Below, piece after piece: positions 1,926 through 54,529 of a stretch of DNA of 61,590 nt. Position 1 is the stretch's first letter; the number at the start of each line of letters is the position of its first letter. Source of the DNA: Candidatus Micrarchaeota archaeon (lineage in GTDB: Archaea; Micrarchaeota; Micrarchaeia; Anstonellales; Bilamarchaeaceae); contig JAUSHJ010000042.1 in assembly GCA_030648615.1 (NCBI GenBank), positions 1 to 61,590 of the forward strand, written 5' to 3'. Under the pieces are notes generated by a model. The model was not told the DNA's origin and made no database searches. It worked only from the letters and a program-made list of their open reading frames with translations. The position numbers and the translations under genes are program-made.

Positions 1926-3008
1926 ATGAGTTTCCGTGCCGAATTGACACATGAAATTGCCATACTTGGTTGTGGTGGAACAATTGTAAGTAAAATAGAG
2001 TATAAAACAGGTGCAGTATTCCCTGCGATAGACCCTGAAGAAATAAAAACAGCATTTCCAAAAATAGAAACACTGGCAAAAATAACTACAAAACAAATTT
2101 TTTCTCTTCTTTCTGAAGACATGAACTCTTCCCATTGGTCCATTGCTGGAAAAGCAGTCATGGATAAAATAAGAGAGGGTGTAGAGGGCGTAGTTCTTAT
2201 GCACGGTACCGACACGATGCACTATAGTTCTGCAGCAATGAGCTTTATGATTCAGAATTTACCTATACCGGTTATTTTTGTAGGTTCGCAAAGAAGCAGT
2301 GACAGACCAAGCAGTGATAATGAAACTAATCTGTTAAATGCAGTTTATGCTGCAAAACAAAATTTTGCTGAAGTTGCAATATGTATGCATGCGAATACTA
2401 ACGACGATTATTGTAACCTAATTAGAGGAGTTAATGCAAGAAAATTGCATACATCTAAGAGAGATGCGTTTAAATCGGTAAATTCTCCTCCGCTTGCAAA
2501 AGTCAATTATATCAGCAATACTTTTGAATCTTTAACAGATATGAAAAAACGTGAAAAGAGAACACCTAAAACAGATTTCAAATTCAATGACAATGTCGCC
2601 ATGATATATGTCCATCCAAATATCCAGCCTAAATTCATCTCTAAACTATCTTCTTTTGACGGTATAGTGCTAATGGGTACTGGACTAGGACACGTACCCA
2701 CAAATCCGTTTGGAGATAGAAATGCCAGCCCAGTTATAAAAGAAGTGAAAGAACTTATAAATTCAGATATTCCAGTAGTTATGACACCCCAAACAATATT
2801 CGGAAGAGTCAACATGAATGTTTATACTGCCGGCAGATTGTTGAAAGAAGCAGGAGTGATCGGTGACGGATGTGATTGGACTCCTGAAACAGCTTTTGTA
2901 AAATTAAGCTGGATACTTGGACACACAAAGAAAATAGCCAAGGTAAAGGAAGAAATGCTTACTAACATGATTGGAGAAATCAGTGAGAGGAGTATAGTGG
3001 TTGATTAA
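1926..3008 (+). CDS. gatD: Glu-tRNA(Gln) amidotransferase subunit D (GatD), apparently lacking the usual N-terminal domain
   Basis: Asparaginase-type motifs 'ILGCGGTIVS', 'HGTDTM', 'GSQRSSDRPSSD'. Overlaps the gatE start. The frame is open upstream to a TTG at 1779, but that part is the hairpin element. The first ATG is at 1926, which gives 361 aa. Confidence 0.8.
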   Translation: MSFRAELTHEIAILGCGGTIVSKIEYKTGAVFPAIDPEEIKTAFPKIETLAKITTKQIFSLLSEDMNSSHWSIAGKAVMDKIREGVEGVVLMHGTDTMHYSSAAMSFMIQNLPIPVIFVGSQRSSDRPSSDNETNLLNAVYAAKQNFAEVAICMHANTNDDYCNLIRGVNARKLHTSKRDAFKSVNSPPLAKVNYISNTFESLTDMKKREKRTPKTDFKFNDNVAMIYVHPNIQPKFISKLSSFDGIVLMGTGLGHVPTNPFGDRNASPVIKEVKELINSDIPVVMTPQTIFGRVNMNVYTAGRLLKEAGVIGDGCDWTPETAFVKLSWILGHTKKIAKVKEEMLTNMIGEISERSIVVD

Positions 3009-4794
3009 CATGGTAAAAATAGGAATAGAAATTCATCAACGTATTGATACGAACAAGCTATTCTGCAACTGTTCGTCTACGATTTCAGATAGTGCTATTC
3101 CCAATAGTATAATATCCAGGAAGCTTCACCCCGTACTCAGCGAACTCGGGGAATTCGATAAAGCCGCTCTTGCAGAATATCAAAAAAATAGGATTTACGA
3201 ATACCAGTTATTCGATAAAAACACCTGCTTGGTAGAAACAGATGAAGAACCCCCTCATTCAATGAACAGTGATGCACTCATGATTGCACTCCAGATATCT
3301 ATGCATCTGAACTGCAAACTAGTAGATGAAGTCCACATCATGAGAAAAATGGTCATAGACGGCAGCAATACGTCTGGTTTTCAGAGAACATCTGTAATTG
3401 CCATGGGCGGATATATCGAAACGTCTAAAGGCAAGGTAAGTATAACTCAAATTGCAATAGAAGAAGAAAGCTCAGGTATAGTAGAAAACAAAGAATCAAA
3501 AGTCATTTATCGACTCGATAGATTGGGCATTCCGCTTATAGAAATAACTACTGACCCAGACATAAAAGATGCTCAGCATTTAGTAGAAGTTGCAGAGAAA
3601 ATTGGTTTACTATTAAGAGCTACTGGAAAAGTCGCAAGAGGTTTAGGCACAATAAGACAGGACGTCAACATATCTACAGAAGATGGCGCAAGGGTTGAGA
3701 TAAAGGGAGCCCAAGACTTAAAACTTTTACCAACACTCATGGAAACTGAAGTCAAACGTCAAAAAGAACTAATAAAGATATCCGGTGAGTTGAAAACAAA
3801 ATTTAATGGCAAAATTACAATACAACGAATATTTGTCAATATCACAAATGTTTTTGTCAATACCCAGGCACCAATGGTAAAAAATGGAATAGCTAATGGT
3901 GAAGTAGTTTATGGACTTCGATTGCAGCATTTGAAAGGAATTCTAGGCAGAGAACTTCAACCAAACAAAAGATACGGAACGGAACTAAGTGATTATGCAA
4001 AGACAGCTGGAGTAAAAGGAATAATACATAGCGATGAAACGCTAGAAAAGTATGGATTCGCAGAACAAGAAACGAGCTCGCTTAGGAAAACTCTGAATAT
4101 TGGAGATAATGATGCATTCGTCCTGGTTATTGCGAAAGAAGACGTAGCTAAAAGAGCACTGGAAAACGTTGCAAAAAGATGCGAAATGGATTTCGTTCCT
4201 GAAGAAACCCGGAAAGCAAATCCGGATGGAACTACTAATTATATGAGACCGCTTGCCGGAAAAGCAAGGATGTATCCTGAAACGGATGTCCCCCCTATAG
4301 CAATTGATGCTAAATTACTAAAAGAAGTTAAAGAAAATAAAAGTGAATCGTTAGATGAGAAAAAAGAGAAGCTTGCAAAAATCCTAAACAAAGAAATGGC
4401 AGAATCAATGCTAAGATCGAAGAATTTACAATTATTTGAGAAACTACTTTCATTAGATGTTGATCCTGTACTTATTGCTAATACGCTTGAGAATACAGTG
4501 GTTTCTCTCAGACGGGAAGGCATAGTTATTTCAGATCTTGAAATGGTAATGATTGATTTGTTTACTAATTACAAAAAAGGATTATTTGTAAAAGCTGCAA
4601 TTATAGAAATATTGAAGCACGTAAGCAAAGGAATGCCGGTAGGTGAAGCAGTAGAGAAGAACAATCTCGGAAAACTTTCCGGTGCTGAACTACAGAAAAT
4701 TGCACAGGAAAATAATTTTGATATCGCCAAGATAATGCAGAAATACAGATTGAGAATTGAACCTAGTGATGTGGCAAAGCTGAAGAAAAACTAG
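3001..4794 (+). CDS. gatE: Glu-tRNA(Gln) amidotransferase subunit E (GatE)
   Basis: N-terminus 'MVKIGIEIHQRI' of the GatB/E family, 597 aa. 8-nt overlap with gatD, the classic gatDE operon arrangement. Confidence 0.88.
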   Translation: MINMVKIGIEIHQRIDTNKLFCNCSSTISDSAIPNSIISRKLHPVLSELGEFDKAALAEYQKNRIYEYQLFDKNTCLVETDEEPPHSMNSDALMIALQISMHLNCKLVDEVHIMRKMVIDGSNTSGFQRTSVIAMGGYIETSKGKVSITQIAIEEESSGIVENKESKVIYRLDRLGIPLIEITTDPDIKDAQHLVEVAEKIGLLLRATGKVARGLGTIRQDVNISTEDGARVEIKGAQDLKLLPTLMETEVKRQKELIKISGELKTKFNGKITIQRIFVNITNVFVNTQAPMVKNGIANGEVVYGLRLQHLKGILGRELQPNKRYGTELSDYAKTAGVKGIIHSDETLEKYGFAEQETSSLRKTLNIGDNDAFVLVIAKEDVAKRALENVAKRCEMDFVPEETRKANPDGTTNYMRPLAGKARMYPETDVPPIAIDAKLLKEVKENKSESLDEKKEKLAKILNKEMAESMLRSKNLQLFEKLLSLDVDPVLIANTLENTVVSLRREGIVISDLEMVMIDLFTNYKKGLFVKAAIIEILKHVSKGMPVGEAVEKNNLGKLSGAELQKIAQENNFDIAKIMQKYRLRIEPSDVAKLKKN

Positions 4795-6089
4795 AGAGTA
4801 ATCTGCTTTCCTTTCCCAGAATCTTTTTTAGTCACTTTTTTAACAGTCTCTTCATTTATTATTTTAGTTTCTTCCTTCACTTCTTTAGATTCTTCCTTAG
4901 GTTTTCCGATCTTTAAATTCTCAACGCTCGTCCCCATTATAAATGCCATTTCGTCTTCTGTAAATTTATAGTGAAGCATTACGCGTTCAGTATCTTTAAC
5001 TCCGAATTCTTTTATTATAGGAATAAATATCCTTGCATCTCTTGAATTAGTATGTGTTACTTCTCCTATTTTTTTACCTATAGATTTGAGGATTGCCCTA
5101 GTAGACACAGTGCTAGCCATTTGGCGAAGGTAATTTGGAAATGAATATTTGGTAAATTTCCTGTAAACGCTTTTTTTTGATAATGCTACACCTGCACTTA
5201 CAAAATCCAGAGAGTATTTCAAATAACCCCAATGAGAATTTCTAATGCGACCTTCTAACTGATCTGCACGAGAAAGATAGTAGTATGCCATCGCCCTATC
5301 ATCTAAATTTTCATATTCTAATGGAATATTTTCGTCTACCCAAAGCTTTAGAATACTATAATCGACATCTCCAGAAACTGCCTTTTTAGCATCCTCATAT
5401 TTATCTGATTTGAATATGGATCTTATCCTTTCAAAAATATCTTTATCCCTATCACGCTGAGATGTAGACATACCTTGTAAATCATTAATAGAAGAACAGA
5501 CATCTCCGTTGCAGTTTTCTGCAATTGCATCAATCCTAGCATCATCAACTACGAGTTTTTCTTTCTCAGCAATTTTTTTAAGCAATAATTTTATAGAAGA
5601 CTTATTAACTTTTTTAAATTCTAAAAGCTCTGATTCTACTCTTATTGGAGCAATTTTCTTATCCCACGCATTAGTAGCTGTAAGTATTATTGGTTGATTC
5701 GAATCTCTTAATAATTTTGCTATTGCTGGAATTCCCCCTGAATCACTCCTCTGAAATGCATCTATGTCGTCTATGAGAAATATTTTCTTTCTTCCACTTA
5801 AAGAACCTGCCAATGTAGCAGCAGTCAATATTTTTTCAACTCTATCTTTATTTCTAAGTTCATTTGCTCCCATTTCAATTAGTTCTAAATCAAATTCTTC
5901 TTTTAAAGCATGAGCAGTGGAACTCTTTCCTGTACCTACTGCACCATAGAGCAATAGAGACTTTTTCCTTACACCGTTCATCCAGTTTAATGCCCACTGA
6001 CGTATTCGTGTAAGCTGTTCATCATTGCCAATTATTTCACTAAGTTTTTTAGGTGAATATTTTTGTGTAAATAACGTTCTATTTTCCAT
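4791..6089 (-). CDS. rfcL: replication factor C large subunit
   Basis: 'KYSPKKLSEIIGN', Walker A 'GAVGTGKSS', 'FLIDDID'. AAA+ clamp-loader architecture, 432 aa. Confidence 0.8.
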   Translation of the reverse strand: MENRTLFTQKYSPKKLSEIIGNDEQLTRIRQWALNWMNGVRKKSLLLYGAVGTGKSSTAHALKEEFDLELIEMGANELRNKDRVEKILTAATLAGSLSGRKKIFLIDDIDAFQRSDSGGIPAIAKLLRDSNQPIILTATNAWDKKIAPIRVESELLEFKKVNKSSIKLLLKKIAEKEKLVVDDARIDAIAENCNGDVCSSINDLQGMSTSQRDRDKDIFERIRSIFKSDKYEDAKKAVSGDVDYSILKLWVDENIPLEYENLDDRAMAYYYLSRADQLEGRIRNSHWGYLKYSLDFVSAGVALSKKSVYRKFTKYSFPNYLRQMASTVSTRAILKSIGKKIGEVTHTNSRDARIFIPIIKEFGVKDTERVMLHYKFTEDEMAFIMGTSVENLKIGKPKEESKEVKEETKIINEETVKKVTKKDSGKGKQITL

Positions 6090-12482: not shown

Positions 12483-12592
12483 CTATTCTACTGTAAATTC
12501 TATCGATGTTAAAGATTTCTTCTTTAACAGTTGTAAATCATAAAGTAATTTGCTCGAATTTACAACAGGACAAATTCTTCGCAAATTTGTCC
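12483..12592 (+). repeat. MITE-like repeat, copy 1 (family A)
   Basis: Imperfect terminal inverted repeats ctgtaaattctatcga...tcgaatttacaacag. Central hairpin gttaaag-atttctt-ctttaac. Adjacent hairpin ggacaaatt-cttcgca-aatttgtcc. Near-identical copies at 30398 and 59688, and a short one at 22500. Confidence 0.6.
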
Positions 12593-12628
12593 TTTTTATT
12601 ATATTTTATTATTTTTATTTTATCTATT

Positions 12629-21293: not shown

Positions 21294-21473
21294 GCAGGGG
21301 TGGCGGAGCGGTCAAACGCGGCAGACTCAAGATCTCATAAGTTCCTTACTCGAATGTGAGAAAGGAAATCTGTTGGCCTAGCGCCTACACAGGTTCAAAG
21401 ACCACCTTTCTTTTTCCAAAAGAAAGCTAGTCGCACCAAAGAAAAAGGTGGTATGAAAATCCTGTCCCCTGCA
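21294..21473 (+). tRNA. tRNA-Leu(CAA), type II, with two putative introns (canonical 37/38 and one in the T-loop)
   Basis: Acceptor gcagggg/cccctgc (7 WC). Anticodon stem gcaga only pairs with tctgt about 36 nt downstream; loop ctCAAg gives anticodon CAA. T-stem acagg pairs with cctgt only after removing ~60 nt that follow 'ttcaaa'. Long variable arm. Confidence 0.55.
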
Positions 21474-21547
21474 ATTTATACTGATCAGAGGACGCTAACT
21501 TTTACTGAGGGACCAGTAAACCCACTTCCATTTATTTTGCAAAATCC

Positions 21548-22267: not shown

Positions 22268-22499
22268 ATAATACTATCTCAGAAGTACTATATAAATGTT
22301 ACTATTGATGATGTTTTATGCAGATTTACGGTTATTGCCCCGCCAATAGCCTAACCTCGTTCAGGCCAGCATTTATATAGAACGAGTGTTGGATTTACCT
22401 CGACAAAGAGGGCAAAAAACAAGGTTGCGTCCTCAGAGCTGGTCAGGGGGTTTGCCCCCTGCAAATTTTGTTTACAAAATTGCGGTGCTTTGTTTGTAA

Positions 22500-22553
22500 G
22501 GACAAATTGATAAGAAATTTGTCCTGTTGTAAATTCGATAGAATTTACTATAG
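22500..22553 (-). repeat. MITE-like repeat, short copy (TIRs joined, central part deleted)
   Basis: The reverse complement reads ctatagtaaattctatcgaatttacaacaggacaaatttcttatcaatttgtcc, i.e. the family-A termini without the core. Confidence 0.5.
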
Positions 22554-22670
22554 AAAAACAAATGCCACCTGCAATTTCTTTTTATCAATATAATCTAACA
22601 ATACCCCAGACTCACGACCGAAAACGTTCTAGTGACAACTATTTATTAATTTTCCCATCGTATAACCCTC

Positions 22671-23015: not shown

Positions 23016-23432
23016 ATGAAATCTATAACAGTAATTGCAGATGACAGAGTAGGTCTTTTAGCAGATATATCATACCTTCTTGGAAAAGCAAAAATAAACA
23101 TTGAATCGATTGGACTGGAAGTCGTTGCCGGCAAAGCAGTAATGTCTCTTACTTTGAAAGATCCTGAAAAAGCTAAGACTGTCCTAGAACATGCTGGATA
23201 TGAGGTCACTGAAACGAACATGATAGTAGTAAAACTAAATGACCAACCAGGAGAACTTGGAAAAATTACAAGTATGATGGCTCAGGAAAAAATAAATATT
23301 GAGAATATACATATGCTATCAAAAGATGGTAAAGCTACGATTATAGCTATTAAAGTGGATAAACCAAAAAGAGCATTAAAACTTCTAGAACCATACCTTG
23401 TAAATAGAGAAGAATTAACTGGTGTAAATTAA
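23016..23432 (+). CDS. tandem ACT-domain protein
   Basis: Two ~65-aa repeats with 'DRVGLLADIS' / 'DQPGELGKITS' ACT signatures. Confidence 0.65.
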   Translation: MKSITVIADDRVGLLADISYLLGKAKINIESIGLEVVAGKAVMSLTLKDPEKAKTVLEHAGYEVTETNMIVVKLNDQPGELGKITSMMAQEKINIENIHMLSKDGKATIIAIKVDKPKRALKLLEPYLVNREELTGVN

Positions 23433-24484
23433 TCCAACTCCAGTTCAATCTCTTTTTCTTTTTTATTTATTTTAGCATTAGGCAATTTATTCTCAAGATC
23501 ATTTATATTTGTTTTTTCAGCCATTGCTAGCAATGATTCTACTTTCTCGTAATTTGAATAAATAAAATCGCCTTTTGCCTTAAGTTCTTTTTCTTCCTCG
23601 TTCAGAGTAACCAAACGAGCTTCCTGCTCTTCTAACCTTTTTTGCAATTTATCCAGTTCAACATTACGCTCCTCTTTTGCATTTAGATAAAATAAATCTG
23701 CAACTTCGCTAAGTGTTTCAAATGACTTAGTTTCAAAATCAGAATATTTGGAGAATTTTATTAAACCATAGTCAACTATTTGGCTATCTTTGTAGAAACC
23801 TACTGGAGCAAGATGTTTTCTTATAATATCTAATTGAGAAGTTATAGACCCTAGTTCTGATTTTGTCACCGTATTACCAGGCTTCTTCTCTTCTATTTTA
23901 CAAATAGACAATATTTCCTTCGCGTATTCTTTTCCAAGTGGCATCTGAAGAAGTGCACTTATTATATATTTCTCAGATAATGCATCTTCTAGTTTTTCCT
24001 TAACGTTTGATTTTGGATAATTGTATTCAACACCACGTTTTATTTTTCTGTCTTTCCATTCCTCATCCTTAACTGCAAATAAGGTTTTTCCATCTCGCAC
24101 CAGTACAAGATTACCTTTGGCAAATCCTTCATAAACTAAAGTTCCTCCGTCAAACTCAAATGCAATTATCCTATCATTGTTTATCTGTTTTACTGATATT
24201 AGTTTACTGCCTTCTAATTCTTTTCTTAACCCTTGAACGAAACCGTCTCCTTCTTCACCTTCTTCCATGAATTTTGAGGCATTAATTCGCATGCCTAGAT
24301 CTATGGATAGAGAAATATCTCCAAGTTTTATTCTGTACCTGCCTTCGGCTATGAAGTATATCTTATTGAACCTTCTGCCTAGCAGATTATCAAGTTCTTT
24401 TAGTATGAACTGATATTCTATGTTTTCCATCGGTCTGCCCTGTGGGGCAGATCTGTCGACCCTTCGGTTCTCCATCGCACGCAT
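23429..24484 (-). CDS. NFACT-N domain protein (N-terminal half of a NEMF/RqcH/FbpA-type ribosome quality-control factor)
   Basis: 'FILKELDNLLGRRFNKIYFIAEGRYRIKL' with a coiled-coil C-terminus. The partner NFACT-R gene is at 36817-37599. Confidence 0.65.
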   Translation of the reverse strand: MRAMENRRVDRSAPQGRPMENIEYQFILKELDNLLGRRFNKIYFIAEGRYRIKLGDISLSIDLGMRINASKFMEEGEEGDGFVQGLRKELEGSKLISVKQINNDRIIAFEFDGGTLVYEGFAKGNLVLVRDGKTLFAVKDEEWKDRKIKRGVEYNYPKSNVKEKLEDALSEKYIISALLQMPLGKEYAKEILSICKIEEKKPGNTVTKSELGSITSQLDIIRKHLAPVGFYKDSQIVDYGLIKFSKYSDFETKSFETLSEVADLFYLNAKEERNVELDKLQKRLEEQEARLVTLNEEEKELKAKGDFIYSNYEKVESLLAMAEKTNINDLENKLPNAKINKKEKEIELELD

Positions 24485-24527: not shown

Positions 24528-25535
24528 ATGAAAAAACCAATGTCTCGAAATATAATTTCTCGATCAGTTTGTCACGAGGGCAAAAAAATCGTGACAAATC
24601 TCTCGAGATCAAAACGTGATCTCTCAATGGATGCCGAAACAGCGTTATTAGCAATAATGGATAAAGAATCCCTGGAAAAACTAGTAGAGGAAAAAATAGA
24701 TGAATTTCATGGTTTCCTGAGCAAGGAAGTTGCCACTAAGTTAATAGCTAAAGAGAAAGGACTCTTGAAAAATGAAGAAAAGATAGTAACTATAAAAGAA
24801 ATTGCAGCAGGAGATAAAAACATCTCACTTGTGGCAAAGATAACAAAAGTATTCCCAATAATAGAATATGAAAGTGGCAAAAGGTCAAGAAAAATAATGA
24901 TTAATGATGGAGCTACAATTGCTATAAAACTATGGAACGAAGATGTAGAAATTGTAAAAAGGCTCAAGGTAGGAGATGAAGTGAACATACGCAGAGCCTA
25001 TGAGAAAAACGATGAACTAGCACTCAGTTATTCAGGAGAGTTTAAACTTTCTAAAAGTGCACCATTTTCTAAAATCAGTGAATTAGAGGATAATGCAATT
25101 GTAAACCTAAGAGGCACAGTCATAAGCAATCCTACGATTGGTATGCGTGAACTAGAATTCCAAATTTCTGATGGTGAAAATTCAGTTAAATGCATAACTC
25201 CAATAGACCTAGAAGTAGGAAAACACTTGACTAAAGATGATGAAGTGATAGTTGAGAATGCAGTATTCTCTAAAGGCGCCATAAGACTTCTCGGAGAAAG
25301 TAGATTACTAGTAAGAAAAACTAAAGGTATTATTGCTGGCAATGTAACTACTATGAATATTGTCAACGAAGTAATAGAACTGATTATAGGTGAACAAAAA
25401 GTCAAACTTAACAGAAACGAGTTTCTTTCGCTGATAAAAGTAAAAGTTGCCGAAGATATATCACTAGAGGCAATTGCAAGTCTTAAAAAGGATTCTCTGT
25501 TAAATACTTACGTCCGGATATCCGGACTTAACTAA
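24528..25535 (+). CDS. RPA-like ssDNA-binding protein with multiple OB folds
   Basis: Repeated OB-fold-like segments ('ISLVAKITKVF...GDEVNIRRAY', 'IVNLRGTVIS...'). The true start is likely M at 24627, downstream of the IR element. Confidence 0.45.
   Translation: MKKPMSRNIISRSVCHEGKKIVTNLSRSKRDLSMDAETALLAIMDKESLEKLVEEKIDEFHGFLSKEVATKLIAKEKGLLKNEEKIVTIKEIAAGDKNISLVAKITKVFPIIEYESGKRSRKIMINDGATIAIKLWNEDVEIVKRLKVGDEVNIRRAYEKNDELALSYSGEFKLSKSAPFSKISELEDNAIVNLRGTVISNPTIGMRELEFQISDGENSVKCITPIDLEVGKHLTKDDEVIVENAVFSKGAIRLLGESRLLVRKTKGIIAGNVTTMNIVNEVIELIIGEQKVKLNRNEFLSLIKVKVAEDISLEAIASLKKDSLLNTYVRISGLN
24568..24598. repeat. 29-bp inverted-repeat element, copy 1 (tttgtcacga-gggcaaaaaaa-tcgtgacaaa)
   Basis: Exact reverse complement of the copy at 29958-29987. 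Confidence 0.55.
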
Positions 25536-27736: not shown

Positions 27737-27794
27737 GACAAGCTTGTCGCTCAGAGCGACAAGATGTCCATTGTTCGATATGTCGAACAATTGG
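27737..27794. repeat. hairpin element (family B), intergenic copy
   Basis: cttgtcgc-tcaga-gcgacaag, then ccattgttcga-tatg-tcgaacaattgg (asymmetric stem). About 85% identical over 40 nt to the copy inside argS. Confidence 0.55.
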
Positions 27795-29559: not shown

Positions 29560-30150
29560 AACGAGTAATTAAAAGCTTCTGAATACTAAGCATATATGGG
29601 CTAGATTGGGGCCAGGGGTCCCAGCACCGTACATCCCCTTTAGACGGGTCGAAGACCCGGGGCGTTATATAATTCTAAGATGCCTTCTGTTTTAAGCGTC
29701 GATGCTCTGCCTCATATGGCAGTCTTTACGCATCAACCGAGCCAGATCGAAAGAAGCAACTCTAAATGCATAAAACTGTGCTTGTGAGATACAGAGTGGA
29801 GCTGATGGCAGAAGCTCCTTCTTAGTGTTACTATGGCCAACCGGGATGCCCATTTTGAAACAAAATGGGCTGAATTTACTAACAAGTAAATCGGATGCCC
29901 ACTCTACTTATGATAAACTAAGGTTCGTGGACCTTTGACGTGTATTCACGTCAAAATTTGTCACGATTTTTTTGCCCTCGTGACAACCCTTCCTAGTCTT
30001 CAGTTTCGCTTATAGACGGAATTCCAGTCAGTTTGCCCTAAAGGCAAATCCCTCGAGCATAGCTCTCGGTCACTCCGCTATCGCTACGTGACAGCCAACA
30101 CGTATCTGTTCTTTCTTGTAAATCGTCAACTGTCGAAAAAAACTACATAA
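29560..30150. other. ORF-free, hairpin-rich ~600-bp region; candidate structured ncRNA or degraded gene
   Basis: No ORF of 60 aa or more on either strand. GC-rich core at 29595-29660 (ggggccaggggtccc..., cgggtc-gaa-gacccg). Downstream hairpins ttgacgtg-tattc-acgtcaaa, tttgcc-ctaaa-ggcaaa, and the 29-bp IR element. Confidence 0.25.
29958..29987. repeat. 29-bp inverted-repeat element, copy 2 (inverted relative to copy 1)
   Basis: tttgtcacga-tttttttgccc-tcgtgacaa, the exact reverse complement of 24568-24598. Confidence 0.55.
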
Positions 30151-30397: not shown

Positions 30398-30490
30398 TTA
30401 TTCTACTATAAATTCTATCGATGTTAAAGAATTCTTCTTTAACAGTTGTAAATCGCAAATAGATTTACTCGAATTTACAACAGGACAAAA
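30398..30490 (+). repeat. MITE-like repeat, copy 3 (family A)
   Basis: About 90% identical to 12483-12592 over ~95 nt. Confidence 0.6.
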
Positions 30491-30499
30491 TTTCCCGAC

Positions 30500-30585
30500 A
30501 CGATTGTTGCTCGTGGCAACAATTGCGTGGGCACAATTATTTTCCGCAGAAAATAATGTGCATTGACGCGTTTTCGCGTCAATTG
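30500..30585. repeat. hairpin element (family B-like) appended to MITE copy 3
   Basis: cgattgttgc-tcgt-ggcaacaattgcg, gcacaattatttt-ccgcag-aaaataatgtgc, and cattgacgcg-tttt-cgcgtcaattg. All three show the CATTG/CAATTG one-nt asymmetry. Confidence 0.5.
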
Positions 30586-30645
30586 TATCTTTTTCCTAAT
30601 TGGAAAAAGTTTGTTATCATTTTGTCCTTTTATTATCTTTTTATA

Positions 30646-33625: not shown

Positions 33626-35188
33626 GTGAAATTACCTATTAATATTAAGAACACTAAACAAATGATTTTTTTACTTCTAATAGTATATACTATTACAAGA
33701 CTTTTTATTGTATCTTATGTACCGCTCGTTAAAGATGAAACGATCTATGCCATGATGATAGAAGAACAGGCAGAAAAACCAACGTTAATTACAACATTTT
33801 TAGGCTACGATGTAGGCTGGAAACCACCAGTGTTCTTTTGGATTTATGCTTCTTTTATTAAAATTCTAAAAGTGTTGCCACTACCTCTAGAGCATATTTA
33901 TAGACTACCAACAGTATTTTTTGGAGCTGTAAATGTAGTTCTAGTTTATTTTTTTATAAAAAAATTACATACACCAGAAATTGCTTTTTTGACTGCATTA
34001 ATTTATGAATGCTTATTTCTTACAATTTATACCGATAATTCAGTCTTGACAGATACACTAAACATGACATTTGTTTTTATTAGTCTTTTATTTTACATAA
34101 ACAAGAAACCTACGATGAAAAATTTTATCATCGGCGCAACATTTGCATTTCTAGCGTTCTATGTCAAATTTGCACTTGCATTTATAGTTCCCGTTTTAGT
34201 TATCAGTTATTACTTTTTTAATGATGAAAAATTTGATAAGAAAATTTTTCAGAATTGTAAATTATCAAATTTACAATATGATAAAAAAATATTAAAAAAT
34301 CCAATATTATGGTACTCTTTTATCGCCATACTTTTAGCTCCAGTTATATATTATTCTTTATTTTCTGATAAAAGTTTGACAGAGAACGTATACAATAAAG
34401 ACATTTTGGATAGATTTCTAAGCATACTAGAACCCATAAAAAATATCGACATCGCCAAAAGTTCTTTAATAGGTCTTTTTTTCCTTGTGAGTGTATTTTT
34501 GGTCATTGGAATTGCAGGATTGAAGAACAATTGGAAAAAATATTTATTCTTTGCTTCCTGGTTAAGCCTAATAGCATTTCCAATATTCTCAGGAAATTAT
34601 CTGCCTTGGCATTTCTTACCAATAGCATTGCCATTGGCATTTTTTTCTGCCATAGAATTAAGCTATTATAAAGAAAAATATTTATTCGATAGATTCAGCG
34701 CATTTATTTTAATTTTAATAATAATAGTTAATCTAGCTTTAGGAATGATGTTCTATGATGACCTAAAAAATGGGATTATGCCTGAAAAAAGTGCCGGAGA
34801 ATTCCTTGCGTTTAAACAGAACGTAGCAATAATTGGAGATTATCCCCCCACAATAATAGCATACAAAACACTGAAAGAAAAAAGAAAATTAGGACATATA
34901 CTTGATTATGGCTGGATATTAGGATCTGGACAACAGGATAATGAAAGCTATCAGAAATTAGGCCAAAAATATTTTGAAAATATTAACAATATTGAAAATG
35001 GATCTTTTGCCAAAATGTTTTACGTAGACAATAAAATATTTAGAAAGGATACTAACATCAGCAAATTCGATTACCTGGTGGCCATAGGCTGGAAAAGTAA
35101 AAATGGAAAACTTATTTGGAACAGTACGAACATAAATATTTATGATATTAGTTCAGGAATAAATAAATCAGTTGTATCTTCTCAATAA
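33626..35188 (+). CDS. GT-C fold glycosyltransferase (PMT_2/ArnT-like)
   Basis: More than 11 TM helices. 'LVKDETIYAMM' acidic motif in the first loop. Confidence 0.55.
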   Translation: MKLPINIKNTKQMIFLLLIVYTITRLFIVSYVPLVKDETIYAMMIEEQAEKPTLITTFLGYDVGWKPPVFFWIYASFIKILKVLPLPLEHIYRLPTVFFGAVNVVLVYFFIKKLHTPEIAFLTALIYECLFLTIYTDNSVLTDTLNMTFVFISLLFYINKKPTMKNFIIGATFAFLAFYVKFALAFIVPVLVISYYFFNDEKFDKKIFQNCKLSNLQYDKKILKNPILWYSFIAILLAPVIYYSLFSDKSLTENVYNKDILDRFLSILEPIKNIDIAKSSLIGLFFLVSVFLVIGIAGLKNNWKKYLFFASWLSLIAFPIFSGNYLPWHFLPIALPLAFFSAIELSYYKEKYLFDRFSAFILILIIIVNLALGMMFYDDLKNGIMPEKSAGEFLAFKQNVAIIGDYPPTIIAYKTLKEKRKLGHILDYGWILGSGQQDNESYQKLGQKYFENINNIENGSFAKMFYVDNKIFRKDTNISKFDYLVAIGWKSKNGKLIWNSTNINIYDISSGINKSVVSSQ

Positions 35189-35366: not shown

Positions 35367-35458
35367 AATATACCTTAGTTATCAAAATTGATAATTAAAG
35401 TAAAAACAAAGCTTAATATACCTTAGTTATCAAAATTGATAATTATGGTAAAAACAAA
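35367..35458 (+). promoter_or_regulatory. 44-nt tandem direct repeat (x2, period 48 nt) containing the ttatcaaaattgataa palindrome; candidate AbiEi operator
   Basis: Copy 1 is at 35367-35410 and copy 2 at 35415-35458, identical except 'taaag' versus 'tatgg'. Copy 2 overlaps the AbiEi start codon. Confidence 0.5.
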
Positions 35459-36056
35459 TAAGATTATGATTTTGAAAGAATTACAAAAATACCCAGTATT
35501 CACTGCCAAAACTATTAGAGATATTACAGGCAAAGAAAGGCAGTATGGCAATCTGATACTTCATAGATTAAAAAAAGCAGGTCTGATTTTTAAACTCGAG
35601 AGAGATAAATATACTGTACATGAAGATTCTTGGATAGTAGCTTCAAATATTCTATGGCCATCATATATATCTGGTTGGGCAGCCCTCCAGTATTATCATT
35701 TAACTGAACAACTCCCGTGGCGCATAGATATAATAACCACCGGGCAAAAGAAGAAAAGAGAAATAACTTTTGGAAATTCAAGAATACGTTTCATTAAAAC
35801 AAAACCAGAATATATGTTCGGATTTAGAAAAGAGCATTATCACGGTTTTGAGATATTCATAGCAGAAAAAGAAAAGTGTATTGCAGATAGTTTTGTTTTT
35901 AAGAAAGTTTCGGACGAAGAATTATTAGACATCGTATCCAAACATAAAGAAGAGTTAGACATAAGATTAATAACTAAATATATAAAAAAAATGGTTCGTC
36001 GTCCATGGGCGAAGAACGCCGAATATTTTTTAGAGAGGCTCAATACACATGCTTAG
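35436..36056 (+). CDS. AbiEi-like antitoxin / transcriptional regulator (type IV TA, abortive infection)
   Basis: N-terminal wHTH 'ILKELQKYPVFTAKTIRDITGKERQYGNLILHRLKKAGLI'. 8-nt overlap with the downstream DUF1814 gene. The true start is possibly M at 35445. Confidence 0.6.
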   Translation: MIIMVKTNKIMILKELQKYPVFTAKTIRDITGKERQYGNLILHRLKKAGLIFKLERDKYTVHEDSWIVASNILWPSYISGWAALQYYHLTEQLPWRIDIITTGQKKKREITFGNSRIRFIKTKPEYMFGFRKEHYHGFEIFIAEKEKCIADSFVFKKVSDEELLDIVSKHKEELDIRLITKYIKKMVRRPWAKNAEYFLERLNTHA

Positions 36057-36807
36057 CAGAAATGAATTGGAAACAATGATGCAACTGAAACGACTCAGTA
36101 TTGTCCAGACTGAAAAAGATTATCTTCAAAACATTCTCCTTTATACGATATATTCGGTTGCTGGTAGAGAACTGATTTTCAAAGGGGGCACATGCTTATA
36201 CAAGGTATATGGCCTGAATAGATTTAGCGAAGACCTTGATTTTTCCTTAACTAAATATTTTGACTTTGAAAAGTTAGTGAAAAAGATATTATTTATGACA
36301 GGACAAACTGGATTATATGGAAAGGTAAAAACATTTGAAAAATATCAGAATCAGTTTAATATAAATATGGAATTCAAAGGACCACTATATTCAGGAAATC
36401 CAAAAAGTCTATGCTTTATAGGTCTTGACATCAGTATGCGTGAAAAACCATTTTTATCACCGGAGAAGCAAACTTTGAATCAGTTCTACAAAGATATACC
36501 GGCATTTGATATATTTACAATGGATTTAAGAGAAATTCTTGTAGAAAAAATTGCGGCAACACATGACAGAAAAAAACCAAGAGATGTTTATGATATTTGG
36601 TTTCTTTTAAAATTTAAAAATGTCCAAATTGATTATGAGCTTCTGCAAAAAAAATTGAAAAAACGTAAAATATCTTTTGAAAAAGACACATTTCTTCATA
36701 AGATACAGGAAAAAGAACCGATGTGGAAAGGAGATTTGACACCATTGATTGCATCAGAATTACCCCCATTCGATCAGGTAAAAAAGGAGATTGAAGAAAG
36801 ATTATGA
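36049..36807 (+). CDS. AbiEii/AbiGii-family nucleotidyltransferase toxin (DUF1814)
   Basis: 'GGTCLYKVYGLNRFSEDLDFS' hallmark motif. Confidence 0.7.
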   Translation: MLSRNELETMMQLKRLSIVQTEKDYLQNILLYTIYSVAGRELIFKGGTCLYKVYGLNRFSEDLDFSLTKYFDFEKLVKKILFMTGQTGLYGKVKTFEKYQNQFNINMEFKGPLYSGNPKSLCFIGLDISMREKPFLSPEKQTLNQFYKDIPAFDIFTMDLREILVEKIAATHDRKKPRDVYDIWFLLKFKNVQIDYELLQKKLKKRKISFEKDTFLHKIQEKEPMWKGDLTPLIASELPPFDQVKKEIEERL

Positions 36808-36816: not shown

Positions 36817-37599
36817 ATGAACATTAAACTCAAAATAGGTAAAACCGTCCACGAGAACGCTGCACGTTACTACGAACAGGCAAAAGAAGCCAGGAAAAAG
36901 ATGGACGGGCTTAAGCAAGCAATAGAAGAAACAAAAAAGGAAATGATTAAATCAGAAAAGAAAGCTAAAGAAAATAAAAAACTAATAAAGACTAAAAAAG
37001 AAAAAAAATGGTTCGAAAAACTGCACTGGTTTTACACTTCAAAAGGAAAAATGGCTATAGGAGGAAGAAATGCACAGCAAAATGATCAGGTAGTTTCAAA
37101 ATACATGGAAGACAGAGACTTGTTTTTCCATGCTGATATCCAGGGAGCTACAGTGGTTATATTGAAGGATGGCATAGATGCAGAAGACAGTGAATTGTTA
37201 GAAACAGCACAGTTTGCAGCCAGCTTTAGCAATGCATGGAAAAACGGTAATGCATCTGTGGATGTCTATGCGGTAAAAAAGGATCAGCTTGCAAAACATA
37301 CAAGTGGCGGTTATATCCCAACAGGGGCTTTTGCCATAACTGGAGAAAGAAAATGGTTCAAGAAAATGAAGATGGCTCTAAGACTTGGTAGAAGCCCTAT
37401 GGTAGAGGGTGGAGGCATACTGATTGTACCTGAGAATTGTACTAAAAAGCTTGAAAATGAAGTTACACTTTTTCCTGCTGCTGCCGGAAAAGACAAGGGA
37501 GAGTTAACAAAAACTCTTGCGAAAAGATTTGCTGTACATCCTGATGAATTAATGGAAGTACTGCCTAATGGGAAAACTAAGATGGTGTACAAGGATTAA
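36817..37599 (+). CDS. NFACT-R (DUF814) domain protein, the C-terminal half of a NEMF/RqcH-type factor
   Basis: 'LHWFYTSKGKMAIGGRNAQQNDQVVSKYMEDRDLFFHADIQGATVVIL'. Confidence 0.65.
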   Translation: MNIKLKIGKTVHENAARYYEQAKEARKKMDGLKQAIEETKKEMIKSEKKAKENKKLIKTKKEKKWFEKLHWFYTSKGKMAIGGRNAQQNDQVVSKYMEDRDLFFHADIQGATVVILKDGIDAEDSELLETAQFAASFSNAWKNGNASVDVYAVKKDQLAKHTSGGYIPTGAFAITGERKWFKKMKMALRLGRSPMVEGGGILIVPENCTKKLENEVTLFPAAAGKDKGELTKTLAKRFAVHPDELMEVLPNGKTKMVYKD

Positions 37600-40890: not shown

Positions 40891-42747
40891 ATGCTAACCA
40901 AAATCAAACACCACATAGCTAAAATGCTGGCAGATGCTGCAGATATTAGTGAAGAGAAAACTTTTTCTAGCCTTGAATTACCTAAGAACGAGTTTGGAGA
41001 CCTGACTAGCAAGATTGCATTTGTGCTTGCAAGTGAGCAAAAAAAGAATCCGATGGAGATTGCTAACAGTATCGTTGTGAAACTTCCCAAAGACGAATAC
41101 GTTGCCAAGGTCGAAACTAAAGGTCCATACATAAACTTCTATTTATCTGATAAATTTTACTCTGAACAGGCAAACGAAATAGTAAAATTGAAGGATAAAT
41201 TTGGTATAGGTAAAAAAACAAATAAAAAAGTTATGATAGAATATTTCCATGCAAATACTCACAAGGGCGTGCATATAGGTCACATACGAAACATCTCAAT
41301 AGGAGAAGCATTGGCAAGAACGCTTGAATTTGCAGGTAACAAAGTGATAAGAGCTAATTTTCAAGGAGACATAGGCATGCATGTTGCCAAATGTCTCTGG
41401 GGTTTCATTAATATTTACCATGAAAAAGCTCCAGAAGAAAACCGCGGTGTTTGGTTAGGTAAAGTTTATTCTGAAGCTTCCGGAATGACAAAAGGAAACG
41501 AAGAACTAGAAACCCAGGTCAAAGATATTAACGTCAAGCTTTATACAGGAGATAAGAAACTTACAGCCCTATTGAAAAAAACAAGACAATGGTGTCTTGA
41601 TGATTTTAAAGAATTTTACAAAGAATTTGGAGTAACGTTTGATGAACTTTATTTCGAGAGTGAAACTGAAAAAATAGGGACAAAAATAGTTATGGAAGCA
41701 CTCAAGAAAGGAATAGCAAAGGAAGACCAAGGTGCGATAATAATGGACCTTAAAGATGATGGTCTCGGAGTATACGTACTAATTACTAAAGAAGGCTACC
41801 CGCTCTATTCAACCAAAGATATCGGTCTTGCAAAAATAAAGTTCGACAAATATAAACTTGACAGAAGCATTCATCTCGTTGGAAAAGAACAGGAATTCCA
41901 TTTCATGCAGCTCTTCAAGGCTTTCGAAAAATTAGGCATGGAAAAAGCTGCCAAAGTTTCCTACCACCTCATTTATGATTTAGTTATGCTTCCGGAAGGT
42001 AAAATGTCCTCACGGGAAGGAACGATGGTGCTTTACGAGGATTTGAAGACTAAACTAATGGAACTAACTCGCGTTGAAGTAAAGAAAAGACATGAAGACT
42101 GGGATGCGAAACAAGTAGAAGAAACCGCAAGAAAAATAGCTTTTGCTGCATTGAAGTTTTCCATGGTAAGGAAAGAGAATAACAGGATTATAGTATTTGA
42201 CTGGAATGAAGCATTAAATCTTGAAGGAGATTCTGGACCATACTTACAGTATGCATATGTACGTACTAACGGCATTCTTGAAGGTTATAAAACTTCAAGA
42301 GATGTGGCCAACAAGCTTGTTGTTCAGAGCAACAAGATGTCCACGCAATTGTCGAGCGCGACAATGCGCACATTGTTCGAAACATCGAACAATTGTGTTG
42401 TTGCATTGCAACAATCGGAAGGCCACACCGATATAGAGAAAGCTGGGAAAAAAGAAATAAACGTTAAAGGATATAGTTACACTAATGAAGAGAAAAAACT
42501 CGTTAAACTGCTTTCTGAATTCCCGGAGGTTATTGAGAGGACTGCCAGCCACCTCAGTACAAACACTTTGGCGCAGTATTTGTTAGAAGTAGCATCATTT
42601 TTCAATAAGTTTTATGCATCTTCCCCAGTGCTAAATGCTGAAAAAGAAGATGAAAGAAATGCTAGACTAGAAATAGTAAAGGCAACCAATACCGTATTGA
42701 AGAGTGGACTGAGTTTACTCGGAATAGAATGTCCAGAAAAAATGTAA
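40891..42747 (+). CDS. argS: arginyl-tRNA synthetase, carrying an in-frame hairpin-element insertion
   Basis: HIGH-like 'HANTHKGVHIGHIRN', 'GKMSSREG' (KMSKS), DALR-type C-terminus. 618 aa. Confidence 0.88.
   Translation: MLTKIKHHIAKMLADAADISEEKTFSSLELPKNEFGDLTSKIAFVLASEQKKNPMEIANSIVVKLPKDEYVAKVETKGPYINFYLSDKFYSEQANEIVKLKDKFGIGKKTNKKVMIEYFHANTHKGVHIGHIRNISIGEALARTLEFAGNKVIRANFQGDIGMHVAKCLWGFINIYHEKAPEENRGVWLGKVYSEASGMTKGNEELETQVKDINVKLYTGDKKLTALLKKTRQWCLDDFKEFYKEFGVTFDELYFESETEKIGTKIVMEALKKGIAKEDQGAIIMDLKDDGLGVYVLITKEGYPLYSTKDIGLAKIKFDKYKLDRSIHLVGKEQEFHFMQLFKAFEKLGMEKAAKVSYHLIYDLVMLPEGKMSSREGTMVLYEDLKTKLMELTRVEVKKRHEDWDAKQVEETARKIAFAALKFSMVRKENNRIIVFDWNEALNLEGDSGPYLQYAYVRTNGILEGYKTSRDVANKLVVQSNKMSTQLSSATMRTLFETSNNCVVALQQSEGHTDIEKAGKKEINVKGYSYTNEEKKLVKLLSEFPEVIERTASHLSTNTLAQYLLEVASFFNKFYASSPVLNAEKEDERNARLEIVKATNTVLKSGLSLLGIECPEKM
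42309..42416. repeat. hairpin element (family B) lying in-frame inside argS
   Basis: cttgttgttcagagcaacaag, cgcaattgtcg-agcg-cgacaatgcg, cacattgttcga-aaca-tcgaacaattgtg, and ttgttgcattgcaacaa. Possible TIR-like flanks gatgtggcc / ggccacacc. Confidence 0.5.
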
Positions 42748-46683: not shown

Positions 46684-46775
46684 ATGTTTGTCTGCAAAAT
46701 CCTTGACGCAATTGTCATGCTTGACAATGCACCCATTGTTCGTTGCAACGAACAATTGGGAGTTGCCGCAACTTC
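46684..46775. repeat. hairpin element (family B) apparently inserted into the 3' flank of the lipoprotein paralogue, flanked by AAGT direct repeats
   Basis: gcaattgtca-tgct-tgacaatgc, cccattgttcgttg|caacgaacaattggg, and agttgc-cgcaact. AAGT at 46680-83 and 46776-79. The downstream 'cccttcttcccagct' matches the 3' flank of paralogue 1 at 46222-46236. Confidence 0.55.
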
Positions 46776-52486: not shown

Positions 52487-53680
52487 ATGAGAAAGATTAG
52501 TGAAATAAACGTAAAAGGAAAAAAACTAATTGTCCGAGTAGACCTCAACTCACCAATAGAAGGTGGAGAAATTCAGGTAAATCCTAGAATGCACGCTCAT
52601 GCAGCCACGATTGCAAAACTTAGCAATGCTGGTGCCAAGGTCATAGTAATTGCTCACCAGGGAAGAAGGGGAGATGATGATTTTACTCACTTGCATAGGC
52701 ACACTGAATTACTAAAGGAAATAACAGGAAAACATCAGATGAGCTTCATCGATGACGTGATTGGTGAAAAAGCTAAATCTGCTTTAGCAACTATGAAAGA
52801 TGGAGATATTGTAATACTAGATAATGTGAGAATGCTTAACGATGAAACCAAGGAAAAATGTAATGGACAAATAGTTAAAGAACTTACACCACTTGCTGAT
52901 TATTTTGTACTTGATGCATTATCCATTGCACATCGTGGACATGCGAGCGTAGTAGGTTTTGCAGAGGTTTTGCCTAGTTTTATGGGATATGTTCTCGCAG
53001 CAGAAGTAAGTGCAATTGAAAAAGTAAAAAATAGTAAAAATGTAACATTTTTCTTTGGTGGATCTAAAGTAGAAGAATCATTTGACATTCTTAGGCACTG
53101 GTTGAATGAAGAAAAAGTGAATAAAGTACTGGTTGGCGGGGCACTTTCTATTCTTTTAATTTATTCTGCAGGATATGGTGTTGCAGATTCCTATGAATTT
53201 CTTGAAGAAGGTGGATTGCTAAAATTCGTCGATGAAGCAAGAGAAATACTAAATAAGTTTGCAGATAAAATTGTTTTGCCGATTGATTTTGGAATTAGCA
53301 TTGGTGAAGAAAGAAGGGAAGTTGATTTTGACAAAGTAACCCATGGACAGATATTTGACATTGGTGAAAAAACGATTGCTAATTATGCGAAAATAATTTC
53401 AGAAGCACAGACAATAGTTGCCAATGGCCCTGCTGGAGTTTACGAGTTAGAGAAGTTTGGCAAAGGAACTAAAGGAATTCTTAGTGCAATAGCAAATAGC
53501 AAAGGATTTTCACTCCTTGGTGGAGGACACACTATTACTGCAATAGAGAAGTTCAAATTGCCTAAGGAGAAGTTTGGTTATGTTAGCTTGTCAGGCAAAG
53601 CACTTATTGAATATCTGTCTGGAAAAGAGATTGCTGGATTGAAAGCACTTGAAGAGAGTGAGAAGAAGTTTAAGGTTTAA
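52487..53680 (+). CDS. pgk: phosphoglycerate kinase
   Basis: 'LIVRVDLNSP', 'ILDNVRM', 'GGGHT'. 397 aa. Confidence 0.85.
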   Translation: MRKISEINVKGKKLIVRVDLNSPIEGGEIQVNPRMHAHAATIAKLSNAGAKVIVIAHQGRRGDDDFTHLHRHTELLKEITGKHQMSFIDDVIGEKAKSALATMKDGDIVILDNVRMLNDETKEKCNGQIVKELTPLADYFVLDALSIAHRGHASVVGFAEVLPSFMGYVLAAEVSAIEKVKNSKNVTFFFGGSKVEESFDILRHWLNEEKVNKVLVGGALSILLIYSAGYGVADSYEFLEEGGLLKFVDEAREILNKFADKIVLPIDFGISIGEERREVDFDKVTHGQIFDIGEKTIANYAKIISEAQTIVANGPAGVYELEKFGKGTKGILSAIANSKGFSLLGGGHTITAIEKFKLPKEKFGYVSLSGKALIEYLSGKEIAGLKALEESEKKFKV

Positions 53681-53763
53681 TCACTGATTGCTAGATAGTA
53701 GATGTAGAAGCTTGAAACTATAGGTAGTAAACAAAACTCCGGACTGAAACATTTATATTTTTG

Positions 53764-53772
53764 CCCCCCCCC
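53764..53772. repeat. C9 homopolymer tract upstream of a small ORF
   Basis: 'ttgCCCCCCCCCtaatt', read directly. Unusual in an AT-rich genome. Confidence 0.6.
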
Positions 53773-53793
53773 TAATTATCTTGGTGATATAAT

Positions 53794-54054
53794 ATGCCAA
53801 GTCCAATACCAAGACCAGTAAAACAAGGAGTAGAAGAATTTTTTCAATCAGTTAACGTTGAATTTGGACACAATACTTTTGATTACCAACGGAATGGACA
53901 AACCACAACTTCTACTGCAACCGGAGACTTCGTATTCCTAATTCGTGGAGAAGATATGAAAGTAAGATTTGGATTGAGAGAAGTAACTAGCAAAGAAATA
54001 AGGTATGATATGTCCGATAAAACATATTATGCAAAGCTTCCTAATGGGAAATGA
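53794..54054 (+). CDS. small hypothetical protein
   Basis: 86 aa. 'FDYQRNGQTTTST' resembles 'FDYIKYGQVNQTTVSS' of the next ORF. Confidence 0.35.
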   Translation: MPSPIPRPVKQGVEEFFQSVNVEFGHNTFDYQRNGQTTTSTATGDFVFLIRGEDMKVRFGLREVTSKEIRYDMSDKTYYAKLPNGK

Positions 54055-54135
54055 GATGTATTCCAAAGCACAAATGATTTTCTTGACTTCAGTTGTAAAG
54101 GATCAGATAATTCTTGGGTCAATGTCAAATTAAAA

Positions 54136-54450
54136 TTGGAGTCTAATGAAGGTAGTTTTGATTATATAAAATACGGTCAAGTAAACCAGACTACTGTAAG
54201 TTCTAATAAGTTTATAGACATAAAAACTGACGAACGTTCTGGAAATCAGATAGAAATAGGCGCAGTTTACATCGCTAACCTTGGCAGAACCGTAAGATAT
54301 ACTGACCAGCAAGAACCTGCAATTCTAGTGGAAATGCCAAATAGAAAATGGTTAGGTGGATCTGATAGCTCTGGGAACTTCTTAAGTCAAATAATTTATA
54401 GACAACATGAAACTGGAAAAAGTGTGAAACTGAATCTTCAGAGACCATAA
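54136..54450 (+). CDS. small hypothetical protein, weak paralogue of the preceding ORF
   Basis: 104-aa ORF. Confidence 0.35.
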   Translation: MESNEGSFDYIKYGQVNQTTVSSNKFIDIKTDERSGNQIEIGAVYIANLGRTVRYTDQQEPAILVEMPNRKWLGGSDSSGNFLSQIIYRQHETGKSVKLNLQRP

Positions 54451-54529
54451 ATTGTCGACAAAAGATAGTTTTATATACTTTTTCTACTAATCATACTTAG
54501 TATACAAAATATACTAAGACGGTGAAACT

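Follow-up and report, generated by a model that had tools for sequence, protein, structure and literature searches.

The described elements closest to the repeats reported here are the PATEs of Haloquadratum walsbyi, which lack inverted terminal repeats, carry palindromes near their termini and do not duplicate their target (PMC3119063). On their 5′ side PATEs adjoin a targeting sequence of 4-6 nt; they exist also as 52-bp versions made of the termini only, and their palindromes are themselves hit by small mobile repeats of ~110 bp (PMC3119063). IS200/IS605 elements are present in >65% of Micrarchaeota genomes (PMC13343696), and their transposase, TnpA, recognises a transposon-adjacent motif together with subterminal hairpins (PMC10055086). 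In bacteria, the Rickettsia RPEs are palindromic repeats of ~100-150 bp in a small, host-dependent genome, which can lie in frame within protein genes and be translated (PMC10969869). A census of DPANN genomes has tallied MITE-like repeats (PMC11602168). The Micrarchaeota are host-dependent, uncultured archaea whose genomes are small and densely packed; for their small repeats we found no specific description in the papers searched, only the census-level DPANN MITEs and the IS200/IS605 counts for the phylum.

We analysed a stretch of 61,590 nucleotides (the window), the complete sequence of one contig in a Candidatus Micrarchaeota MAG that has MDO8554103.1 and MDO8554131.1 among its proteins. 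The window is of archaeal origin because it encodes TBP, GatD/GatE, XPD, RFC, Cdc48, eIF1A and eIF2-beta, and the best matches of its TBP, CorA and GT39 proteins are from Candidatus Micrarchaeota. The genome is compact (the intergenic share of the window is ~9.9%), and four intergenic copies of the repeat, which we call family A, make up ~8% of this intergenic DNA. Comparisons were made with contigs of a close relative from groundwater metagenomes (L011, L095 and L013-L016; 82-90% nucleotide identity to the window) and with more distant relatives (L012 and L005, 67-70% identity; L017). L011, L013 and L016 come from study PRJEB22302, and L011 and L095 are identical across their overlap. A further contig, L004, is part of the metagenome assembly that also yielded L011 (GCA_900218215.1), and presumably comes from the same organism.

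The sequence-only reading had placed a repeat at four loci, and all four indeed hold it. The 15-mer TCGAATTTACAACAG occurs exactly four times in the window, versus 0.23 occurrences expected, and none of 100 shuffles reached four. An nhmmer profile built from the full copies returned the same loci, 12484-12593 (+), 59686-59796 (-), 30399-30494 (+) and 22499-22549 (-), with E = 2e-33 to 2e-7, and beyond them nothing in the window with E < 1. Copy 1 is a full form of 110 nt at 12484-12593 (+), between convergent genes for a DUF1805 protein and a hypothetical protein adjoining TBP. Copy 2 (30399-30628, +) is a full form with a nested insertion, and copy 3 (59686-59797, -) a full form of 112 nt between divergent genes for a 774-aa protein and CorA. 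Copy 4 is a short form of 54 nt (22499-22552, -; 80.7 bits with a covariance model) between divergent genes for a 239-aa protein and a DUF424 protein. Copy 1 shares 91% identity with copy 2 across 97 nt, and copy 3 is 84-88% identical to both. The neighbouring genes at the four loci are unrelated to one another, and the repeat is therefore dispersed; a single larger duplicated segment, which together with a lack of further copies in the genome the earlier reading had named as fatal to its proposal, is ruled out by the differing flanks and by extra copies on L004. A contig of the window's own genome in Logan (L001) begins inside copy 4, at 22519, an assembly break that is expected of a multi-copy repeat.

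The copies, five in the window and two on L004, range from 54 to 112 nt and are dispersed and non-coding. On L004, one short copy (3901-3956) lies between two Toprim genes and a partial one at the contig start, upstream of SerRS; L004 was the one real contig in a scan of JGI metagenome contigs. A covariance model (R1) found no further copies in the window or in 71 kb of the relatives' loci. Against contigs of GTDB representative genomes, a 20-base core gave only a chance match, to a GC-rich Clostridia contig (L003). In IMG/VR viral contigs a 22-mer had no match, and the 77 single matches to the 15-mer were all seed-level only by nhmmer. BLAST against plasmids and phages gave no match to family A, and Rfam 15, at the gathering threshold and at E <= 0.1, returned only SRP RNA matches in the window.

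The full element is 110-112 nt long and consists of a leader of 8-10 nt, (T/A)ATT(C/G)TAC, a stem P1 that encloses two hairpins, P2 and P3, a linker ACAG, a terminal hairpin P4 and a final T. P1 is a 9-nt perfect inverted repeat with arms TGTAAATTC/GAATTTACA; the arms of P2 are TGTTAAAGAA/TTCTTTAACA, those of P3 GTAAATC/GATTTAC, and those of P4 GGACAAATT/AATTTGTCC. In copy 1, P1 is formed by 12492-12500/12556-12564, P2 by 12507-12515/12521-12529 and P4 by 12567-12576/12584-12593, with P3 between P2 and the 3′ arm of P1; P1, P2 and P3 of copy 2 lie within 30399-30482. The core thus holds two hairpins rather than the single central one first described. The motif TGTAAAT(T)C occurs four times per full element, twice in forward and twice in reverse orientation. 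The same motif, as TGTAAAT/ATTTACA with the arms swapped relative to P1 and P3, is seen in a separate hairpin, GAATTTAC-taacaa-GTAAATC, at 29866-29890, adjoining the 3′ end of the SRP RNA.

The short form (54-60 nt) consists of P1 closed by a tetraloop, followed by P4; in copy 4 and L004 3901-3956 the loop is TATC. Full and short forms differ by a block of 51-53 nt with TCGA on both sides. The description of the short copy as core-deleted may hold, as TCGA provides microhomology at the edges of the core; it is equally possible that the full form arose by insertion of the core into the P1 loop.

Family-A copies fold far better than shuffled sequence on both strands (z = -4.8 to -6.7; -6.4 for copy 1 as RNA and -6.7 for copy 4). 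The stems are almost purely Watson-Crick, with one G-T among ~158 predicted pairs in six copies, and both strands fold equally, with no G-U asymmetry. This symmetry argues for a palindrome acting at the DNA level and against an RNA with G-U pairs. Arm changes are compensated in P2 of copy 3 (G:C to A:T), in P4 of copy 2 and L004 (T:A to A:T), and at four P4 positions of a diverged copy within a protein gene (below), where pairing is kept. A formal covariation test on the six sequences was only suggestive, the observed score being reached by 16 of 500 shuffles.

The copies were compared with orthologous sites that lack them. Copy 1 is missing in L011/L095, where the flanks are 84-88% identical to the window (L011 2109-4637 corresponds to window 15093-12593, and 4608-5978 to 12488-11119), and is likewise absent from the orthologous sites of L012 and L005. 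For copy 3 the empty site is clean in L013-L016, whose CorA is 92% identical at the amino acid level: L013 2262-2318 corresponds to window 59629-59685 and 2322-3465 to 59798-60940, with only GCC between them. The junction reads ...TTTCTT-GGC-CCTGC... in L013 and ...TTTTTT-[element]-CCTAC... in the window, so that copy 3 is a clean insertion of 112 nt with no duplicated target. The distant relatives L005, L012 and L017 are also without copies at the compared sites. Taken together, the empty sites for copies 1 and 3 and the copies at other loci on L004 indicate that family A is mobile and has moved since the lineages split. We therefore consider it highly probable that family A is a mobile, non-autonomous repeat. 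The earlier proposal of a non-autonomous transposable element thus stands as far as it concerns a dispersed, non-coding, multi-copy and mobile sequence, but not in its model of a MITE with terminal inverted repeats and target-site duplications.

The partial L004 copy (1-54) has a degenerate P4, GGACAAATTCTTATAAATTCGTTC, and its TTATAAAT has its centre ~27 nt before the ATG of SerRS, which is where an archaeal TATA box would lie if the mRNA were leaderless; judged from this spacing, the partial copy may have been co-opted as a promoter. At the copy 3 locus, a segment of ~6 kb between PGK and CorA (53654-59628) is absent in L013-L016 and L017, where the PGK-CorA gap is 190-220 nt. This segment encodes small ORFs, including a PIN-domain protein, and paralogous proteins of 654 and 774 aa with no Pfam match; copy 3 sits 57 nt from its right edge.

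The ends defined by the empty sites are 5′-(T/A)ATT(C/G)TACTGTAAATTC...AATTTGTCCT-3′, the 5′ side reading (T/A)ATT(C/G)TACTG.... The termini, TATTCTACTG... and ...AATTTGTCCT, are not reverse complements of each other. The empty sites place the true ends beyond P1, as the element runs ~30 nt past the 3′ arm of P1 and through P4; what had been reported as a terminal inverted repeat is therefore an internal stem, with P4 outside it. Palindromes lie near both ends, P1 at 8-10 nt from the 5′ end and P4 at 1 nt from the 3′ end.

In five of the six copies TTTTC or TTTTT abuts the 5′ end on the element strand, so that the element has one orientation relative to the T-run. The background of TTTTY is ~1% per position even in intergenic DNA, which gives P ~1e-9 for its presence at the left end, a value that depends on the choice of boundary and treats as independent copies 1 and 2, which share ~9 nt beyond each end and possibly are not. 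The T-run is native to the target: it is present in the L013 empty site, and in the copy within a protein gene it is made of lysine codons of that gene. The right flanks of the copies are unrelated. We could not detect any convincing IS608-style guide/target pairing between the leader and TTTTY.

Target-site duplications, the proposed check for a transposable element, showed no fixed length: of the two copies with an empty site for comparison, copy 3 has none and copy 1 an ambiguous, T-rich one of 13-19 nt, and none is visible at copy 4. Both flanks of copy 1 in the window align with one and the same L011 stretch, TTTTATTATTTTTATTTTC (26/30 on each side), and the apparent direct duplication is of low complexity and slippage-prone. 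The hexamer TTTTTA was considered as a candidate duplication for copy 2; a 6-nt candidate for copy 3, TTTTAT, was rejected, as both of its occurrences are native in the empty site. A direct repeat, TGCC(C/A)CCTGCAA(A)TTT, at 22453-22468 and 22563-22577 brackets copy 4 along with two more hairpins (GCAATTTTGT/ACAAAATTTGC and CAGGGGG/CCCCCTG), and is too distant from the element ends to be its target duplication.

Copy 2 has itself been invaded. The two arms of its P4, GGACAAAAT on the left (30483-30491) and ATTTTGTCC on the right (30619-30627), are separated by a block of 116 nt (30494-30609, +) in the P4 loop. The same P4 variant is uninterrupted on L004, and copy 2 is therefore interrupted by a nested insertion. 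The block consists of three hairpins of a second family, which we call family B (ATTGTTGC/GCAACAAT, ATTATTTTC/GAAAATAAT and ATTGACGCG/CGCGTCAAT), and an additional hairpin, CTTTTTCC/GGAAAAAG. The P4 stem thus encloses four hairpins, and the DNA fold of copy 2 has z = -10.4. Family-B hairpins had been ascribed to the third copy as a fusion; the copy concerned is the one at 30398, and the block sits inside its P4 loop rather than being fused to it. Family B is a modular hairpin-array repeat with two to four hairpins per copy, built of the units ACAAGCTTGTYG...CRACAAG, ATTGTCG...CGACAAT and ATTGTTCG...CGAACAAT, with the end CAATTGGAAGG. Its copies lie at 27741-27793, 42343-42395, 46706-46758 and 30494-30585; two are intergenic, one is in the ArgRS gene and one is nested in copy 2.

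The four listed copies of family A are all intergenic, as had been stated, but a fifth is not. A diverged short-form copy at 34224-34283 (-) lies in frame within a GT39/PMT_2 gene (33626-35188). It has two perfect 10-bp hairpins, ATTGTAAATT/AATTTACAAT and TGAAAAATTT/AAATTTTTCA, in the short-form layout, the P4 loop of copy 4 (GATAAGA on the + strand) and the P1 core GTAAATT. Alignment with three homologs revealed a 19-aa insertion in the protein, NDEKFDKKIFQNCKLSNLQ, exactly at the hairpin copy. Since the homologs are only 34-38% identical, the assignment is based on the coinciding position and architecture. By nhmmer alone this copy is not significant, and with the covariance model it scores 47.8 bits, but as one of the six training sequences.

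A second protein gene, for ArgRS (ORF 40891-42747), contains an in-frame insertion of 52 aa (156 nt) at 42283-42438 (+), between the catalytic and the anticodon-binding domains. The insertion is missing in seven homologs (up to 67% identity) and in the ArgRS DNA of L017. It has an outer stem, GTGGCC/GGCCAC, around four hairpins, including those of family B, and its DNA fold has z = -8.4. By analogy, it is an RPE-like insertion into an essential archaeal gene. Both inserts were considered as BHB introns, a candidate we rejected: they are in frame and stop-free, as is expected if they are translated and improbable if they are spliced out. At the left junction of the ArgRS insert (42276-42300), the native codons ATT CTT GAA (TCTTGAAG) can pair with the first inserted bases, CTTCAAGA, so that the insert starts with its own flanking sequence in inverted form; a match of 7-8 nt may be due to chance or may have been left by snap-back or template-switch synthesis.

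How does family A compare with the described systems? Like PATEs, it is too short for a transposase and has no terminal inverted repeats (PMC3119063; PMC10055086). The palindromes lie near both ends, with the 5′ one further from its end; copy 3 shows no duplication; a short conserved motif abuts the 5′ end; a terminal-only version of ~52-55 nt exists beside the longer one; and a near-terminal palindrome has been hit by another small repeat of ~110 nt. These correspondences, namely the asymmetric ends, the palindromes, the lack of duplication at copy 3, the left motif, the short form and the attacked palindrome, favour mobilisation in trans as single-stranded DNA. The likeness is one of features, and no cognate element of the IS605 type or TnpA was seen for family A. 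In contrast to PATEs, family A has end hairpins of two different sequences, its 3′ hairpin reaches right to the end, its target, a T-run, is unusually simple, and copy 1 is flanked by the T-rich duplication.

We thus favour a transposase-less, PATE-like family mobilised in trans by an enzyme of the IS200/IS605 type, a statement that, taken as a whole, we rate at slightly below even probability, while the IS200/IS605 type of the enzyme, proposed by analogy, is a tentative assignment. A hairpin-recognising HUH/Y1 transposase of this type would move family A as single-stranded DNA, with the T-run acting as the transposon-adjacent target motif. Copies insert precisely and directly 3′ of TTTTY on the element strand, without target duplication in the one cleanly readable case, and land in intergenic DNA and also in genes when the frame is preserved. 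Family A contains no ORF, and neither a transposase nor tnpA or tnpB was found when window ORFs >= 64 aa were compared with Pfam (nearly all non-overlapping ORFs >= 60 aa). No transposase was found among the annotated genes of the relatives' loci, and the window holds no IS with ends matching those of family A (TATTCTACTGTAAATTC...AATTTGTCCT). Three features speak against the PATE-like reading, which is based on only six known copies. Left and right hairpins of IS200/IS605 elements are usually similar, whereas P1 and P4 share only AAATT; IS608-type cleavage takes place several bases beyond the hairpin, whereas P4 is flush with the 3′ boundary; and the T-rich flanking duplication of copy 1 is not expected of a peel-and-paste mechanism.

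Other mechanisms have to be weighed against the PATE-like one. The IS110/IS1111 and IS607 families insert without typical target-site duplications, and IS1111-type elements target palindromes. Family A might thus be moved by a recombinase of this kind, a DEDD enzyme of the IS110/IS1111 type or a serine recombinase of the IS607 type, with the TGTAAAT(T)C motifs serving as protein-binding sites; its asymmetric ends, the clean insertion of copy 3, the sequence-specific placement adjoining TTTTY and the four motifs per full element would all fit. However, the window contains no gene for a DEDD or serine recombinase, and the compensated stem changes, among them four altered positions in a P4 that still pairs, suggest a role for the fold and not for the duplex sequence. 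We regard this explanation as rather unlikely. A classical MITE, that is, an internally deleted derivative of a DDE transposon with terminal inverted repeats and duplications of fixed length, would account for the small size, the lack of an ORF, the several copies and the prominent perfect repeat P1; the T-rich duplication around copy 1, as seen against the L011 empty site, and the census of MITEs in DPANN genomes (PMC11602168) point the same way. Yet the element extends ~30 nt past the 3′ arm of P1, so that its real ends lack inverted repeats, copy 3 is free of any duplication and copy 4 of a plausible one, and no IS with matching ends was found in the window; a MITE origin is, thus, improbable.

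A different possibility is that the repeat serves the host, as a 3′-end or terminator cassette, a small RNA or a protein-binding site, and was spread by recombination and kept by selection rather than being selfish. Its folds are very stable (z = -5 to -10), it directly follows oligo-T runs, a termination signal in archaea, convergent genes end at copies 1 and 2, and relatives have other, unrelated hairpins in the corresponding spacer. Its orientation, however, does not follow transcription: divergent genes flank copies 3 and 4, one copy is within a coding sequence, and L004a, on L004, is antisense to both of its neighbours. The absence of G-U asymmetry means that neither strand is preferred, there is no Rfam match at E <= 0.1, and close relatives do without the element at the same loci, with nothing in its place, making a host function very unlikely. 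Chance similarity or a single duplicated segment, for which nothing but the AT-rich background speaks, is already refuted by the fourfold 15-mer, by 84-91% identity across ~100 nt between unrelated flanks and by the copies on another metagenome contig. Finally, an undescribed hairpin-propagating system of DPANN archaea, which we consider unlikely, could have as its modules families A and B together with one or more other hairpin families. In such a system short perfect palindromes would insert without duplication after T-runs, into the loops of hairpins already present, and in frame into essential genes (ArgRS and GT39), with no conventional transposase, for example by template switching, snap-back synthesis or an unknown single-strand DNA enzyme. 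If true, this would be an archaeal counterpart of the Rickettsia RPEs, remodelling proteins in a reduced genome.

Besides PATEs, several described repeats share properties with family A. Haloquadratum SMR-A (PMC3119063) is likewise ~110 bp long, has prominent inverted repeats, makes no target duplication and is mobilised by an unexplained mechanism; it inserts into near-terminal palindromes of other elements, as the family-B block did into the P4 loop of copy 2. The inverted repeats of SMR-A are terminal, however, whereas P1 is internal, no sequence relation is known, and family A mostly targets T-runs rather than other elements. The RPEs (PMC10969869) resemble the inserts found here (19 aa in GT39 and, from family B, 52 aa in ArgRS) in how they work, not by homology; they are from another domain of life, their families encode conserved peptides whereas family A is known here from one coding copy, and, unlike them, most family-A copies are intergenic. 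Prokaryotic MITEs such as Correia/CREE, the Sulfolobus SM elements and ERIC are also small, non-coding, multi-copy, hairpin-forming and mostly intergenic, but family A lacks their terminal inverted repeats and fixed target-site duplications. REP/REPIN sequences, mobilised by RAYT, a domesticated Y1 transposase, are likewise palindromes outside genes, probably processed as single-stranded hairpins by an HUH enzyme that acts in trans, and they form modular hairpin arrays, which family B especially resembles. REPs, however, are units of 20-40 nt that begin with a conserved tetranucleotide at the 5′ end and are linked to a RAYT gene, and most of them are bacterial.

Further hairpins and some unusual genes were noted in the same DNA. 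The hairpin TTGTCACGA-gggcaaaaaaa-TCGTGACAA represents a third repeat and was seen at 24569-24598 and 29957-29986 as an exact inverted pair of 30 nt; the first copy lies in the 5′ part of ORF 24528-25535, at its end, the second follows the SRP RNA, and the Logan contig L001 ends at the first. Unrelated perfect hairpins are found at the same convergent-gene and post-PGK positions in relatives (L005 11113-11178 and L013 2101-2150; examples of their spacer hairpins are GAATTTGT/ACAAATTC, ATTTGCTCATC/GATGAGCAAAT and TGAATTTTC/GAAAATTCA), and hairpin-filled spacers seem to be a general feature of the lineage. The SRP RNA (29596-29853, +) scores best against the bacterial large SRP model RF01854 (75.9 bits) and not the archaeal one. 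A putative tRNA-Leu(CAA) was recognised by eye at ~21296-21476 (+), with two introns, one after the anticodon loop and one in the T-loop (segments GCAGGGGTGGCGGAGCGGTCAAACGCGGCAGACTCAAGA...TCTGT...ACAGGTTCAAA...TCCTGTCCCCTGCA); it was missed by ARAGORN, with or without the intron option, and by Rfam. The N-terminal and NFACT-R parts of NFACT are encoded by separate genes, 23429-24484 (-) and 36817-37599 (+), which are 12 kb apart, and an AbiEi/AbiEii toxin-antitoxin pair (35436-36807) lies directly upstream of the NFACT-R gene.

Family A is a new family, all of whose properties are covered by the PATE, SMR, REP and RPE elements. Since haloarchaea and bacteria are already known to have elements of this kind, the finding adds to established biology without overturning it. 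Its wider interest lies in the in-frame insertion into genes and the nesting of hairpin within hairpin in a reduced archaeal genome. Family A and its companions differ between relatives of ~85% identity and break metagenome assemblies. For DPANN bins, family A provides a concrete marker by which strains can be typed and accounts for breaks of contigs. If a cognate IS200/IS605 TnpA/TnpB were found, TTTTY would be a testable target motif. In this organism, hairpin repeats have lengthened two proteins, an essential aminoacyl-tRNA synthetase and a glycosyltransferase, by peptide segments.
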